From Escherichia phage vB_EcoM_PhAPEC2, in the sequence record NC_024794.1: a DNA stretch of 64,000 bases. One strand, given 5' to 3'. Below the pieces are notes generated by a model, which saw nothing but the letters and a program-made list of their open reading frames with translations, did not search any database and had not been told where the DNA came from. Both the position numbers and the translations under genes were made by a program. How positions within the stretch are numbered: the first letter of the stretch is position 1; the number at the start of each line of letters is the position of its first letter. Shown here piece by piece: positions 44,197 through 50,455 of this stretch.

Positions 44197-44461
44197 AAAG
44201 CTCGACTACCTCTTCGTTTTCAGCTTCAAATTGATCACGAGCGTCTTTATGATAAAGAGCTAACAAACGATTAAACATTTTTCCATCGACACCAAGCTCT
44301 TCTTTAGCACGAGTACGAATGTCTTTAATCAGTTCATTATAACCAGAAATTTTAAGTTTGTTATCGGAAGCTTCCTTGACTAGTTTAGCCAGTTCTTCAC
44401 CATGCACATCTTGATTAAATTCAACTGCTTCTTTCTTAGCCATGTTTACCTCAGAATTCAT
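44174..44461 (-). CDS. dsbA: dsDNA-binding protein DsbA
   Basis: 95 aa ORF between rnh and 33. Confidence 0.7.
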   Translation of the reverse strand: MNSEVNMAKKEAVEFNQDVHGEELAKLVKEASDNKLKISGYNELIKDIRTRAKEELGVDGKMFNRLLALYHKDARDQFEAENEEVVELYDTVFTK

Positions 44462-45368
44462 TAATTACACTTGTTAATTTAGAAAGACCAGATTTTACAA
44501 AATATGAATAAATCTTGCCTTTAGGTTGTTGTTTATACGAGTTATAATACTCTATAATGGTTGAAGCAATATTATCAGGGATATAATCAAAATCAATGAG
44601 AACCAAATTTTCTTGGTACCGTTTATATTCTTCTGCACTTAATAATACTTCAGCTTGAGAACGATCATTGGCAATTGCTTCAATGATCGTTGTTTTCATG
44701 CTTGGAGTTCGTTCGCCTTCAACTCGAGTAAACCAGAAATCACCACGAACTCGAACAGACGCAACACCATCTTTACGGTCGCCTTTAAGAATTTTAGTCA
44801 TGCAATCAATTTCGGCAGAACCATTCTTAATTTTAACCCATTTTTTCTGTGGTGGTGACCACTGTTTAACGTTAGGATATTTGTGTAATTGTGTAAAGTC
44901 ACCATCTGATGCAACAATACATACCTTATGTCCAGCTAATGACAAATATTTAGTTAATACACCGATATGGTCATCCGCTTCATATTTGTCAATATCCATT
45001 ACAACGTATGGCATGTATTTCTTAATCTCATCAACAACTTGACGGAGCGCAGTAAAATATCCTTCCCAATCCCACTTTGAAGCTTCACGATCGGTTTTGC
45101 GATTTTTCTTGTAATAGTAAGCAAAGTCACGACGCCAATAACCTGAAGTAGCATTATCCATACACAATACAAATTTTGTATAGCCTTGCTTACGGAACAT
45201 CACTACGTTTTTACGAATTGAATTCAAGATTACATGGCGAACCATCGGAACAGTAATTTTATCGCCGTCTTCAAAGTTGTTTAATGCGGCGGCCAATGCA
45301 ATGTTACTAAAGTCGGCAAGTGCAATACCTTCTTTGTAATCTTCATCCAACATCATTTCTAAATCCAT
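44451..45368 (-). CDS. rnh: RNase H (5-prime to 3-prime exonuclease, FEN family)
   Basis: 305 aa, same as T4 RNase H; acidic active-site clusters. Confidence 0.9.
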   Translation of the reverse strand: MDLEMMLDEDYKEGIALADFSNIALAAALNNFEDGDKITVPMVRHVILNSIRKNVVMFRKQGYTKFVLCMDNATSGYWRRDFAYYYKKNRKTDREASKWDWEGYFTALRQVVDEIKKYMPYVVMDIDKYEADDHIGVLTKYLSLAGHKVCIVASDGDFTQLHKYPNVKQWSPPQKKWVKIKNGSAEIDCMTKILKGDRKDGVASVRVRGDFWFTRVEGERTPSMKTTIIEAIANDRSQAEVLLSAEEYKRYQENLVLIDFDYIPDNIASTIIEYYNSYKQQPKGKIYSYFVKSGLSKLTSVINEF

Positions 45369-45488: not shown

Positions 45489-48400
45489 ATGGTTGACATC
45501 AAACGTAAGTTCAGGGCCGAAGATGGTCTTGACGCAGGCGGTGATAAGATAGTTAACGTTGCGCTTGCTGACCGCACAGTTGGCACCGATGGCGTGAACG
45601 TTGACTTTTTGGTGCAAGAAAACACCGTACAGAATTATGACGATACGCGCGCGTATACAAAAGATTTTATTGTTCTTTATGATAATCGTTTTTATCAAGC
45701 TTTAAGTGATATTCCAGCTCCGGCAGGCCCTTTCTCTTTGGCTAAATGGAAGGCAACTCGTACAGATGCAGAATGGATTACAGTTCAAGGCGGAGATTTC
45801 CAATTATCAGTAGGTAACTCTATTGCGGTTGATACTTCAGCTGGCACTGATATTAATTTCACTTTGCCTCAAAATCCTTTAGATGGCGATACAGTTATTT
45901 TGTCTGATATTGGCGGTAGAGTAGGCTATGTAAAAGTTCAAATTACTGCAGCGGCTCAAAGTATTGTAGACTTTAGAGGACAACAGGTTCGTTCAGTTTT
46001 AATGACGCACCCAAAATCTAAAATGGTCTTCATTTTTAGCAACCGCCTATGGCAAATGTATGTTTCCGATTACGAACGTAATGCAGTCACAGTAACTCCT
46101 GCCACGCCATATCAAGCGCAACCTAATGATTTTATCATTCGACGTTTTACATCAGCCGCTCCTATTAATATTACATTGCCTCGTAATGCTAATAATGGCG
46201 ATATTATTAATTTAGTGGATTTAGACAAATTAAACCCATTATATCACACAATTGTCAAAACTTACGATGAAACAACTTCTATACGAGAAGCTGGTGTTCA
46301 TGTAGCAGAAGGACGTAATACTGCGGAAGCATTCTTTGTTTATGATTCTGCCAATAGTTTATGGCGTGTTTGGGAAGGTGACCAGAAATCTCGTTTACGT
46401 ATAGTTCGTAATGATACTGATTTACGCCCTAATGAAGAAGTTCTTGTTTTTGGAACTAATAATGATACAATCTCGACGGTAAATCTTACTTTGCCTACAG
46501 ATATTTTGTCTGGCGATACTGTTAAAATATCGTTGAATTATATGCGTAAAGGGCAAACTGTAAAAATTAAAGCTGCTGAAGGCGATACAATTGCTAGCAG
46601 TATTTCTTTATTACAGTTCCCAAAACGTTCGGAGTATCCACCTGATGCACAATGGGTTTCTGTTAGTGAGCTGGAATTTAATGGTGATACTTCGTATGTA
46701 CCTGTACTTGAGTTAGCTTATATAGAAGATTATTCATCTGAAACAAAATATTGGGTAGTTCAACAAAACACCGTAACCGTTGAACGAGTCGATGCATCGA
46801 GCAATACAACTCGAGCTCGTTTAGGTGTTATTGCTCTTGCTTCTCAAGCGCAAGCAAATGTTGATTTAGAAAATGCTCCTGGTAAAGAACTGGCTATTAC
46901 TCCGGAAACATTAGCAAATCGTACAGCAACTGAAACTCGTCGTGGTATTGCTCGTATTGCAACAACTGCACAAGTTAACCAGAATACCGATTTTGCATTC
47001 CAAGACGACTTGATTATTTCTCCTAAGAAATTGAACGAACGTACAGCAACTGAAACCCGTAGAGGTGTTGCTGAAGTTGCAACTCAGGCTGAAACTAATG
47101 CTGGAACAGATGACACCACTATTATTACTCCTAAGAAATTGGATGCCCGTCAAGGTTCTGAAGTTTTATCTGGTATTGTAAAATACACATCTACGACTGG
47201 TACTACAGCTGCTACTATTCGTGGTAATGCTGGGACTAATGTTTATAACAAAGCCGTAGATAATTTAACTATTTCTCCAAAGGCCCTTGACCAATATAAA
47301 GCTACCCCTACTCAGCAGGGTGCAGTAATTCTTGCTATTGAAAGTGAAGTTATCGCCGGCGAATCACAAGCCGGTTGGGCTAATGCTGTAGTGACCCCTG
47401 AAACTCTGCATAAGAAAACTTCTACTGATGGACGTATTGGTTTAATTGAAATTGCTACGCAAGCAGAAACTAATGATGGGACCGATTATACACGTGCAGT
47501 AACGCCTAAGACATTAAATGATAGGAGAGCGACGGAAGGATTATCCGGCATAGCCGAAATTGCTACGCAAGTTGAATTTGATACTGGAACTGATGATACT
47601 CGTATCTCGACTCCACTGAAAATTAAAACTCATTTTGATTCTTCTGACCGTACCAGTGTTAATTCTGATTCCGGACTTATTGAAGAAGGAACCTTGTGGA
47701 ACCATTATACTCTTGATATTTCTAAAGCAAATGAAACACAACGTGGTACACTTCGCGTAGCGACCCAGGCAGAATCTAATGCAGGAACTTTAGATGATGT
47801 TCTTATTACTCCTAAAAAGCTTTTAGGGACTAAGTCCACTGAAACGTCTGAAGGCGTAATTAAGGTTGCTACTCAGGCTGAAACTGTAACAGGAACTTCT
47901 GCTAATACTGCTGTATCACCTAAGAATTTAAAATGGATTGTTCAATCAGAACCATCATGGACTGCTACTACGGCAATTCGTGGATTCGTTAAAACTTCAT
48001 CTGGTTCTATTACATTTGTTGGTAATGATACAGTTGGTTCAACACAATCTTTAGAATCATATGAGAAAAATAGCTATGCGGTATCACCATATGAATTAAA
48101 CCGTGTACTTGCTAACTACTTACCGTTGAAAGCTAAAGCAGCTGATAGTAATTTGTTAGATGGTCTAGATTCTCTTCAGTTCATCCGTAGAGACATCGAC
48201 CAGACGGTTAATGGTTCTTTAAGTCTTACTAAACAGACCAACCTGAGTGCTCCTTTAGTATCTACAAGCACTGCTTCTTTTGGTTCCGAAGCATCTGTTA
48301 CTCGTAGATTAACTCTTAATGACTCTAGCGGTTCCGAAATAGTTTTCACTAAAGGAACCCAATCTCTTAGTAATAAAGAGAATTTCGTTGTTAGAGCATG

Positions 48401-49322
48401 GGGTAATAGCGCTACAGATGGTGCCCGTGATACAGTATTTGAAGCGGGTGATGAAACCGGATACCATTTCTATTCTCAGCGCGCTGCTGATAATAGAGTA
48501 TCATTTAATATTAATGGAACACTTTATTCAACAGGTATTGTTTCTACAAATGGATTAAATGTTACAGGTGTTTCTACCTTTACAGGGCCTATTAGTGCTA
48601 CAGGCGAAATTGTTTCTAGTTCTCCTATTGCATTCAGAGCTATTAACGGTAACTACGGTGTTATGCTTTATAACGCTGGTAACAGTTCTTATATTGCATT
48701 AACTAACTCAGGTGACCAGACCGGGACGTTTAATAACTTACGCCCGATCACGATTAACAACGCAACAGGCTTAGTTCGTCTTGACAATGGTGTTCAAATC
48801 ACAAGTGGTGCAACAATAACTACCGGTGGGTTAACTGTAAATAACAGAATTATTTCTAACGGCGTTAAAACTGCCACTGTTTATACCGATAAACCAACAG
48901 CTTCTACTGTAGGTTTTTGGTCTATTGACATTAACGATTCTGCTGTATATAGCCAATTCCCTGGATACTGGACGCGTGATAACAAAGGTAACCGTGACCA
49001 AGAAATTAAATATCCTGGTACTTTGACTCAATTCGGTAATAGCTTAGATTCACTTTATCAGGATTGGATTTGTTATCCTACAGGTGCAAATGGTGGTAGC
49101 ATTCGATATACTCGTACCTGGCAGAAAAATAAAGATGCTTGGACTTCATTTGCAATGGTATTTGATAGTGGCAACCCACCTTCACCTAGCGATGTCGGTG
49201 CTATCCCATCTGATAATGCTGTTATTGGAAACCTTACTATTCGAGACTTCTTACAATTAGGAAATGTGAGAATTGTTCCAGACCCGGTTAACAAAACAGT
49301 TAAATTTATATGGGTTGAATAA
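45489..49322 (+). CDS. 34: Long tail fibre proximal subunit gp34
   Basis: 1277 aa; internal ~40-aa repeats (TPKKL...ATE...GIA.IATQAE.N); late promoter at 45447. Confidence 0.9.
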   Translation: MVDIKRKFRAEDGLDAGGDKIVNVALADRTVGTDGVNVDFLVQENTVQNYDDTRAYTKDFIVLYDNRFYQALSDIPAPAGPFSLAKWKATRTDAEWITVQGGDFQLSVGNSIAVDTSAGTDINFTLPQNPLDGDTVILSDIGGRVGYVKVQITAAAQSIVDFRGQQVRSVLMTHPKSKMVFIFSNRLWQMYVSDYERNAVTVTPATPYQAQPNDFIIRRFTSAAPINITLPRNANNGDIINLVDLDKLNPLYHTIVKTYDETTSIREAGVHVAEGRNTAEAFFVYDSANSLWRVWEGDQKSRLRIVRNDTDLRPNEEVLVFGTNNDTISTVNLTLPTDILSGDTVKISLNYMRKGQTVKIKAAEGDTIASSISLLQFPKRSEYPPDAQWVSVSELEFNGDTSYVPVLELAYIEDYSSETKYWVVQQNTVTVERVDASSNTTRARLGVIALASQAQANVDLENAPGKELAITPETLANRTATETRRGIARIATTAQVNQNTDFAFQDDLIISPKKLNERTATETRRGVAEVATQAETNAGTDDTTIITPKKLDARQGSEVLSGIVKYTSTTGTTAATIRGNAGTNVYNKAVDNLTISPKALDQYKATPTQQGAVILAIESEVIAGESQAGWANAVVTPETLHKKTSTDGRIGLIEIATQAETNDGTDYTRAVTPKTLNDRRATEGLSGIAEIATQVEFDTGTDDTRISTPLKIKTHFDSSDRTSVNSDSGLIEEGTLWNHYTLDISKANETQRGTLRVATQAESNAGTLDDVLITPKKLLGTKSTETSEGVIKVATQAETVTGTSANTAVSPKNLKWIVQSEPSWTATTAIRGFVKTSSGSITFVGNDTVGSTQSLESYEKNSYAVSPYELNRVLANYLPLKAKAADSNLLDGLDSLQFIRRDIDQTVNGSLSLTKQTNLSAPLVSTSTASFGSEASVTRRLTLNDSSGSEIVFTKGTQSLSNKENFVVRAWGNSATDGARDTVFEAGDETGYHFYSQRAADNRVSFNINGTLYSTGIVSTNGLNVTGVSTFTGPISATGEIVSSSPIAFRAINGNYGVMLYNAGNSSYIALTNSGDQTGTFNNLRPITINNATGLVRLDNGVQITSGATITTGGLTVNNRIISNGVKTATVYTDKPTASTVGFWSIDINDSAVYSQFPGYWTRDNKGNRDQEIKYPGTLTQFGNSLDSLYQDWICYPTGANGGSIRYTRTWQKNKDAWTSFAMVFDSGNPPSPSDVGAIPSDNAVIGNLTIRDFLQLGNVRIVPDPVNKTVKFIWVE

Positions 49323-49330
49323 GAGGTTAT

Positions 49331-50455
49331 ATGGAAAAATTTATGGCAAGGTTTGGACAGGGATACGTCCAAACGCCGTTTTTATCGGAAAGCAATTCAG
49401 TTAGATTTAAGCTAAGTATAGCGGGTTCATGCCCGCTTTCAACAACTAATCCGTATATTTTGTTCCAAAACGAGCCTTTAGGGTTGCAGTCTTTTGGTAT
49501 TGGACTAAATGTTAGGGTGATAAATCCGGAAAATGGAACTATAGTTGATAGTAAATTATACAATTTTGCGCCTACAAATAATGCAACTTCAGCTGCATTT
49601 ATTTCGTTTGTTAATACATACGCAGATAATTTCATTTTCGCATTTATTTCTAATAACAAATTTAATTTGCCACCGGAAATAATTGAATGGTTTAAAGCTG
49701 CTGGGAGTTCAGTTATACCGTCAATTGAAGTTGCTAGTCTTGTTGATATTTCATATTCAGCGTTTTATGTTTCAGGTAAAAATACTATTGCATTAGAACA
49801 CATAAAATACAGTAATAAGAAAACAATTTCTGATTACGCAACTCCATTAGATATTGTATATGACTCTATTGCTGATATAGGTGCTACCGGCTATCCTAGA
49901 CGTACATATGAAGCTCTAGAAACGTTTTTATCTCCTGTTGGAGGAACTAACAATGAAATAAAAAGGATGCCTACGTCATCCCTTGTTACTCCTATCGCAA
50001 ACTATGGATTAAAGCCTACAGATTTTCTTTATTTGAAATTTCAATTAATGGCTGATGAAGAATTATTAGAGGAAGGAACCACAAGACTTTCAATTCGTTT
50101 CTTTAAGTCTCCATCTAGCTCTCCTATATCATCTAAAGATATAAACTTTGATGGAACTGCCGGGGAGTGGAAGCTATATGAAGAATACGTTGAAATACCA
50201 GCTGAAGCTGATGGCTTTACAGTATATTGTTACCGTACGGCCTCAGTCGGTCAAGGTGGACTAAGAAATGTTATTTTCACTGAAGTATCATGTAACGGAA
50301 GTATAGCAAAACCCGCTGAGTTTGGTATAAATGGTATTCGTGTTAATTATATTGATGAATCGTTAACCGGTAATGATATAATGGACTTGCCTACTCAGTT
50401 ATCTAACGACACAGGTAAGGTATTTGGGCAGGAATTTAAAGAGTACACAGAATAA
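49331..50455 (+). CDS. 35: Long tail fibre hinge protein gp35
   Basis: 374 aa; synteny 34-35-36-37; tetraloop terminator downstream. Confidence 0.85.
   Translation: MEKFMARFGQGYVQTPFLSESNSVRFKLSIAGSCPLSTTNPYILFQNEPLGLQSFGIGLNVRVINPENGTIVDSKLYNFAPTNNATSAAFISFVNTYADNFIFAFISNNKFNLPPEIIEWFKAAGSSVIPSIEVASLVDISYSAFYVSGKNTIALEHIKYSNKKTISDYATPLDIVYDSIADIGATGYPRRTYEALETFLSPVGGTNNEIKRMPTSSLVTPIANYGLKPTDFLYLKFQLMADEELLEEGTTRLSIRFFKSPSSSPISSKDINFDGTAGEWKLYEEYVEIPAEADGFTVYCYRTASVGQGGLRNVIFTEVSCNGSIAKPAEFGINGIRVNYIDESLTGNDIMDLPTQLSNDTGKVFGQEFKEYTE

Follow-up and report, generated by a model that had tools for sequence, protein, structure and literature searches.

Short exact DNA matches in the quasi-repeat array of gene 34 of Escherichia phage vB_EcoM_PhAPEC2, and constancy of the array among T4-like relatives

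Gene 34 and its quasi-repeat array

The window analyzed here is a continuous 64-kb stretch (64,000 nt) of the genome of Escherichia phage vB_EcoM_PhAPEC2 (NC_024794.1). It contains a 1277-aa ORF preceded by rnh and followed by gene 35, and the order rnh-34-35 is that expected for a T4-like gp34. The features of the locus and the units of the repeat array are as follows.

44451..45368, minus strand: rnh (RNase H), upstream neighbor; Pfam RNaseH_C (2.1e-59), annotated likewise in relatives
45489..49322, plus strand: gene 34, long tail fiber proximal subunit gp34; 1277-aa ORF with Pfam, nucleotide, and structure-chain matches
46806..48119, plus strand: quasi-repeat array R1 to R10 (aa 440-877), rod of the proximal half-fiber; from unit alignment, HMM, and gp12 matches
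46806-46922, plus strand: R1, 39 aa
46923-47042, plus strand: R2, 40 aa
47043-47150, plus strand: R3, 36 aa
47151-47297, plus strand: R4, 49 aa
47298-47417, plus strand: R5, 40 aa
47418-47525, plus strand: R6, 36 aa
47526-47636, plus strand: R7, 37 aa
47637-47723, plus strand: non-repeat linker from R7 to R8, 29 aa
47724-47831, plus strand: R8, 36 aa
47832-47942, plus strand: R9, 37 aa
47943-48119, plus strand: R10, 59 aa
48393..49163, plus strand: Gp34_trimer (aa 969-1089) and Gp34_2nd (aa 1136-1225), Pfam domains within the length-variable C-terminal third
49331..50455, plus strand: gene 35 (hinge/proximal connector), downstream neighbor; an ORF annotated gp35 at that place in relatives

Two Pfam domains were detected in the encoded protein, both far over the cut-off: Gp34_trimer (PF21446; 1.7e-42) and Gp34_2nd (PF21560; 2.7e-42). 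At the DNA level, the gene was 99.1% identical to its counterpart in Escherichia phage ST2 and 97.4% identical to gene 34 of RB69, and the T4 gp34 chain 9x3r_M (1289 aa) matched residues 1-1277 end to end (E = 0; 72% identity). Given the homology to T4 gp34, the C-terminal domains, the gene order, and the central array, the ORF at 45489-49322 can be assigned on sequence grounds to gene 34 of an RB69-like Mosigvirus, in agreement with an earlier reading of this DNA made from the sequence only.

An HMM built from the gp34 units recovered nine of them, the tenth being degenerate. When this HMM was run against all open frames of at least 80 aa in the window, the motif was found in gp34 alone. When the halves of gp34 were scanned separately against Pfam (E up to 10), the array matched only gp12-short_mid; at the same threshold, the N-terminal part of the protein gave nothing credible. 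PDB chains of gp12 (5iv5, 9f4b, and 5lye) matched gp34 at aa 476-574 and 745-856. Separately, three weakly similar segments of ~105 aa lie in the N-terminal part (45774..46733, plus strand; aa 96-200, 201-305, and 306-415), each bearing an N(F/I/L)TLP...GD(T/I)(V/I) motif with a spacing of 312/315 nt; their local alignments had z-scores of 6.6, 4.9, and 2.9 against shuffles.

The feature is an ordinary one, in that the gene, the repeat, and the structure are textbook T4 biology and already known. The quasi-repeat is a structural unit of both gp34 and gp12 of T4 (PMC5537660, Granell et al. 2017; PMC3004832), and PMC3004832, reporting Cerritelli et al. 1996, places a quasi-repeat cluster at residues 438-797 of T4 gp34 and records the repeat also in gp12 and once in gp37. 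The repeats of gp12, the short tail fiber, represent the same structural unit as the gp34 array, although in a different protein and with a different unit number. With T4 gp34 (structure references, Granell et al. 2017 [PMC5537660] and full-length chains 9x3r and 9f4a), PhAPEC2 shares the gene, the array, the positions, and the unit lengths, the HMM units spanning aa 437-815 in T4 and aa 439-817 in PhAPEC2. The common motif has a G at the turn, IATQxE, and (S/T)P at the helix cap. What sets the PhAPEC2 protein apart is a C-terminal third that is 12-14 aa shorter (400 versus 414 aa) and otherwise only sequence divergence. For T4 gp34, PMC5537660 proposes tail-sheath contacts for the insertions peculiar to the fourth unit and to the unit at residues 822-868. 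The PhAPEC2 counterparts are those of R4 (49 aa) and R10 (59 aa), at positions conserved family-wide.

Exact DNA matches and exchange of short patches between units

The sequence-only reading had drawn attention to a 17-mer, CGTACAGCAACTGAAAC, as an example of near-identical DNA encoding the repeats. The 17-mer does exist, and the 64-kb window contains precisely two copies of it, in frame with each other and separated by 120 nt (40 codons); the second starts at 47040 as reported, and the first starts at 46920 rather than at about 46917. None of the window shuffles contained two matches to it. Its two copies and the next exact repeat are located as follows.

46920..46936, plus strand: 17-mer copy 1 (CGT ACA GCA ACT GAA AC), last R1 codon and R2 head, at the R1/R2 boundary
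47040..47056, plus strand: 17-mer copy 2, last R2 codon and R3 head, at the R2/R3 boundary
47448..47463 (R6) and 47556-47571 (R7), plus strand: 16-nt exact repeat GAAATTGCTACGCAAG, spacing 108

Both copies of the 17-mer encode R-TATET, with R from the final codon of one unit and TATET from the five opening codons of the next, and they lie at unit heads in register with units of ~36-40 aa, which bears out the earlier assignment of the short matches to the gp34 repeat motif. Five exact repeats of at least 13 nt were detected in gene 34, and each of them keeps both the reading frame and the unit register. The exact nucleotide matches of T4 gene 34 fall in the same register as those of PhAPEC2 and are of another sequence.

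We compared these matches with two kinds of shuffled gene. The longest exact repeat in gene 34 is 17 nt, and none of 300 shuffles with random codon order attained this length, so that the observed exact repeats exceed what random codon order would give. When synonymous codons were permuted within the gene so that the protein stayed unchanged, 18% of trials gave an exact repeat of 17 nt or longer, and the longest in-register run between units of PhAPEC2 gene 34 had a P value of 0.27 against this protein-preserving null. The longest extended match, between R2 and R3, covers 69 nt at 72% identity. Unit-versus-unit nucleotide identity reached a maximum of 0.69 and was mostly 0.4-0.6, with a typical pair at ~48% and the best pair 69-72% identical over 69-108 nt. 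Repeats of ~36-40 aa are therefore present much as described, whereas their DNA is not near-identical, exact identity ending at 17 nt and whole units agreeing at 0.69 or less.

Codon choice was also close to expectation. Identical residues between units used the same codon in 252 cases, versus 239 expected from the codon usage of the gene (z = 1.2), and in-register codon sharing within the PhAPEC2 genome was 0.470, compared with 0.452 for sharing between genomes and 0.445 for sharing out of register (z = 1.1). R2-R3 was the one unit pair over expectation, with 17 of 23 codons shared versus 10.5 (z = 2.8; P of ~0.1 once corrected for 45 pairs). Because the longest-repeat, codon-sharing, and run-length tests all sit near the null, the DNA similarity of the units is that expected from a conserved peptide and biased codon usage, without a signature of recent homogenization. 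The gene 34 repeats of PhAPEC2 are ancient and structurally distinct, and their synonymous sites are saturated.

Among the other explanations of the 17-mer, the one that survives best, though we regard it as rather unlikely, is that it was left behind by a short-patch gene conversion, in which ectopic exchange through phage recombination would have copied ~15-30 nt from one of the R2 and R3 heads to the other, with the unit number unchanged. The shared-codon excess of R2-R3 speaks for such an event, as does the behavior of the head codons, which agree between R2 and R3 within a phage and differ between phages, so that they co-vary in both copies across PhAPEC2 (ACA GCA ACT), T4 (ACT GCT ACA), PM2 (ACT GCA ACA), and FBB1 (ACA GCG ACT). 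Across 33 lineages of <80% identity, the R2/R3 head patch showed within-genome sharing of 0.63 versus between-genome sharing of 0.50, a difference reached in 0 of 2,000 permutations that retain some of the relatedness between lineages. On the other hand, the match in PhAPEC2 is no longer than protein-preserving shuffles yield. Over all unit pairs of the family, within-genome sharing was 0.479 versus 0.439 between genomes, and the out-of-register control gave 0.422 versus 0.398; about half of the within-genome excess is thus shared codon usage. We accordingly set aside a general signal of concerted evolution and claim only discrete patches.

Such patches do exist elsewhere in the family, where some lineages carry exact in-register patches longer than the protein-preserving null permits. 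In Enterobacter phage Q7622, R3 and R6 share an exact patch of 59 nt that is missing from the close relatives L056 and L030: R3 of Q7622 has the FRFITPKKLNDR of R6, and L056 and L030 retain ARIVTPKKLNDR. The Q7622 patch is a conversion from R6 to R3. Further patches were found in PM2 (27 nt; R2/R3), kvi (23 nt; R6/R8), and Lw1 (25 nt; R3/R8). Units are thus occasionally converted over short patches in this family, in no case with a change in unit number, and such a conversion may have taken place in PhAPEC2 gene 34 as well. The proposal that the repeats serve intragenic recombination is upheld to this extent: units have exchanged sequence in Q7622, PM2, kvi, and Lw1, and the R2/R3 head patch shows a modest codon-sharing excess family-wide, all of this without a change in unit number. 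For the 17-mer of PhAPEC2 itself, we continue to favor a conserved peptide written in biased codons.

Unit number and length across relatives

The array was compared in 16 annotated orthologs from more than 13 genera together with IMG/VR loci, which gave 64 distinct full-length gp34 proteins of 29-100% identity; gene 34 sequences covering 80% or more of the protein number roughly 1,250 in all. No gain or loss of a unit was detected among them, and the array was the same in 64 of 64. Individual unit lengths (39/40/36/49/40/36/37, the linker of 29, and 36/37/59) were conserved one by one across the 64 proteins, with standard deviations of 0.6-3 aa. Nearly all of the length variation of gp34 is carried by its C-terminal third, which ranges from 280 to 451 aa (standard deviation, 38 aa).

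Each unit has also kept its identity. PhAPEC2 units scored much better against the positional ortholog than against any paralog, with concordance at 10 of 10 positions for T4, HY126, and VR26 and at 7 to 9 of 10 for orthologs of ~40% identity. A test for concerted evolution, under which paralogs within a genome would be closer than orthologs between genomes, came out against it, as ortholog scores far exceeded paralog scores. Long stretches of high identity between units, expected of a recombinogenic array of variable copy number, were absent from the array.

We further searched for recombinant forms. Among the matches listed, the 60 records that matched the repeat region were all colinear and in a single piece. 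Queries built on the junctions that a deletion or a duplication between the 17-mer copies would create returned, from the phage collection, only ordinary copies of ~90% identity, a search whose power is limited to ~41 close relatives. Among close relatives, gene 34 contained extra DNA in vB_EcoM_WFK alone, as a 258-nt insert near the 3' end that begins with CTGTCTCTTATACACATCTGACGCTGCCGACGA and has a 55-nt duplication at its flanks. The CTGTCTCTTATACACATCTGACGCTGCCGACGA at the insert start is Illumina Nextera adapter read-through. Because of this adapter start, the flanking duplication, and the location at the 3' end outside the array, WFK was rejected as a length variant and judged an assembly artifact.

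These comparisons bear on the suggestion, which we consider very improbable, that the repeats actively serve unequal intragenic recombination, with units being gained or dropped and fiber length varying as a result. The geometry would suit it, since the repeats are direct and in frame, and a deletion or duplication of 120 or 108 nt would change exactly one unit and keep the frame; exchange between units does, moreover, occur in relatives. However, the absence of any unit-number variant from the 64 orthologs contradicts it as an evolutionary outcome, and the colinear records, the missing junctions, and the artifactual nature of the sole length variant among close relatives all point the same way. 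Exact homology is, in addition, at most 17 nt within ~70% identity. The comparison of repeat number across related phages, which the sequence-only reading had proposed as a check, gave no support to changes of fiber length.

Length change had also been called a known property of T-even fiber genes. For gene 34, this is not supported by the literature consulted: in PMC7002106, the duplications and motif-mediated recombination documented in T-even fibers concern gene 37 (Tetart et al. 1996, cited therein), and the gene 34 changes reported from a T4 evolution experiment are point substitutions only. Gene 37, encoding the distal fiber, is likewise a tail-fiber gene with internal repeated motifs in which intragenic exchange is conceivable. 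In that gene, duplications are documented and altered host range, whereas gene 34 had no copy-number change in any of the 64 orthologs, and gp34 has no receptor contact. Our literature search, with older subscription papers outside its scope, found no report of repeat-mediated length change, deletions, or duplications in gene 34.

Origin of the matches and constancy of the array

The least probable source of the matches, which can practically be dismissed, is a DNA or RNA element whose repetition has a function in itself, for example, as a regulatory site or as part of an RNA structure. The only point in its favor is that the patch is identical in two places. Against it, CGTACAGCAACTGAAAC is lacking in T4 and in 13 of 15 orthologs checked, whereas the encoded peptide is conserved, and every match follows the reading frame and the register of the protein repeat.

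We consider it highly probable that an ancient protein quasi-repeat, now strongly diverged, gives rise to the short matches as a passive by-product and that the ten-unit array has been fixed since the common ancestor of the T4-like phages sampled. The repeat is a mixed α/β fibrous unit, found in gp12 too, from which the trimeric rod of the proximal half-fiber is built in gp34. According to this explanation, where the same peptide is kept in two units, as R-TATET is at the R2 and R3 heads, biased codon usage would sometimes produce an exact match of 13-17 nt. The array would have been complete in the common ancestor of the sampled T4-like phages, with ten units each having its own length and insertions, and would have neither gained nor lost a unit since.

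Two causes may account for this stasis. Efficient homologous recombination in T4 needs tens of base pairs, and unequal exchange is probably rare because the usable homology between units is tiny. Alternatively, products of unequal exchange may be removed by selection on fiber geometry and on unit-specific contacts; those with an added or lost unit would be purged because the unit count and the specific insertions matter for fiber geometry. Selection as the reason for the stasis is what we infer, and the stasis itself and the sequence statistics are what we observed. Two observations count against the by-product explanation, namely, the shared-codon excess of R2-R3 and the family-wide excess at the head patch, and a past short conversion may have contributed to the 17-mer.

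For the gp34 family, the comparisons describe a protein whose length variation is confined to its C-terminal third and whose units bear rare conversion patches with an unchanged unit count. The repeats of gene 34 should not be taken as evidence of fiber-length plasticity. Rather, the ten units, with individual lengths held down to ~30% identity, represent a constraint that is useful for engineering fiber length or for modeling retraction geometry. As a tentative proposal, to which we give somewhat less than an even chance, the gp34 rod may be a length-locked array, in which units occasionally exchange short patches, clearly in Q7622, probably at the R2/R3 heads of several genera, and perhaps also in PhAPEC2, and all unit-changing products have been purged over T4-like history. 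If this is true, the proximal half-fiber would be a ruler, in which the unit count and the unit-specific insertions are each individually required.

Exchange and length variation among the gp34 repeat units

The quasi-repeat units of gp34 (R1 to R10, aa 440-877) and the units discussed here are placed as follows.

45489-49322, + strand: gene 34, long tail fibre proximal subunit (gp34, 1277 aa)
46806-48119, + strand: R1 to R10
47043-47150, + strand: R3
47418-47525, + strand: R6
47943-48119, + strand: R10

Gene 34 of Enterobacter phage vB_EclM_Q7622 (locus L007) carries a 59-nt exact direct repeat shared by R3 and R6 (L007 1909-1967 and 2284-2342). Because R3 differs from that of Q7622 in two close relatives (gene 34 loci L056 and L030), this repeat is a lineage-specific gene conversion from R6 to R3, which left the number of units in Q7622 gene 34 unaltered.

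Within the repeat array, notable indels were found in R10 only. R10 and its orthologues fall into discrete length classes of 57-61, 65, 69, 71, and 75 aa across genera, and the differences lie in a loop corresponding to the beta-hairpin insertion of Granell et al., which may contact the tail sheath (Granell et al.). Against Mosigvirus relatives of the LF82 and O157 group, DNA identity was lower in the repeat region (46700-48200; 94.9%) than over the whole of gene 34 (96.8-96.9%).

Interrupted gene 34 records

In the record of phage vB_EcoM_WFK, gene 34 is split by a 258-nt insert (GenBank MK373775.1, about 149749-150006; locus L001, 5131-5388) and is annotated as two CDS plus a "hypothetical protein". 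The insert begins with the Nextera adapter sequence CTGTCTCTTATACACATCTGACGCTGCCGACGA, and a 55-nt stretch of gene 34 is duplicated at its flanks; it is an assembly artefact in the public record.

In another contig (L054, IMGVR_UViG_2974754850_000001), the gene 34 ORF stops after 664 aa, within R5/R6. Nonetheless, residues 4-1276 were matched by tblastn, and the early end probably reflects either a frameshift or an error in the sequence of the contig.

The gene 35 position and the N-terminal part of gp34

The sole Pfam match of the protein at the gene 35 position (49331-50455, + strand; annotated gp35 in relatives) was ILEI, an interleukin-like EMT inducer (residues 58-131, E 6.5e-07), with a score barely over the gathering threshold.

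No Pfam model covered gp34 aa 96-415 (45774-46733), where three successive segments of ~105 aa have a common N(F/I/L)TLP...GD(T/I)(V/I) motif. Their overall similarity is weak (z of 6.6, 4.9, and 2.9 versus shuffles). This pattern points to a baseplate-proximal globular domain that was triplicated long ago.
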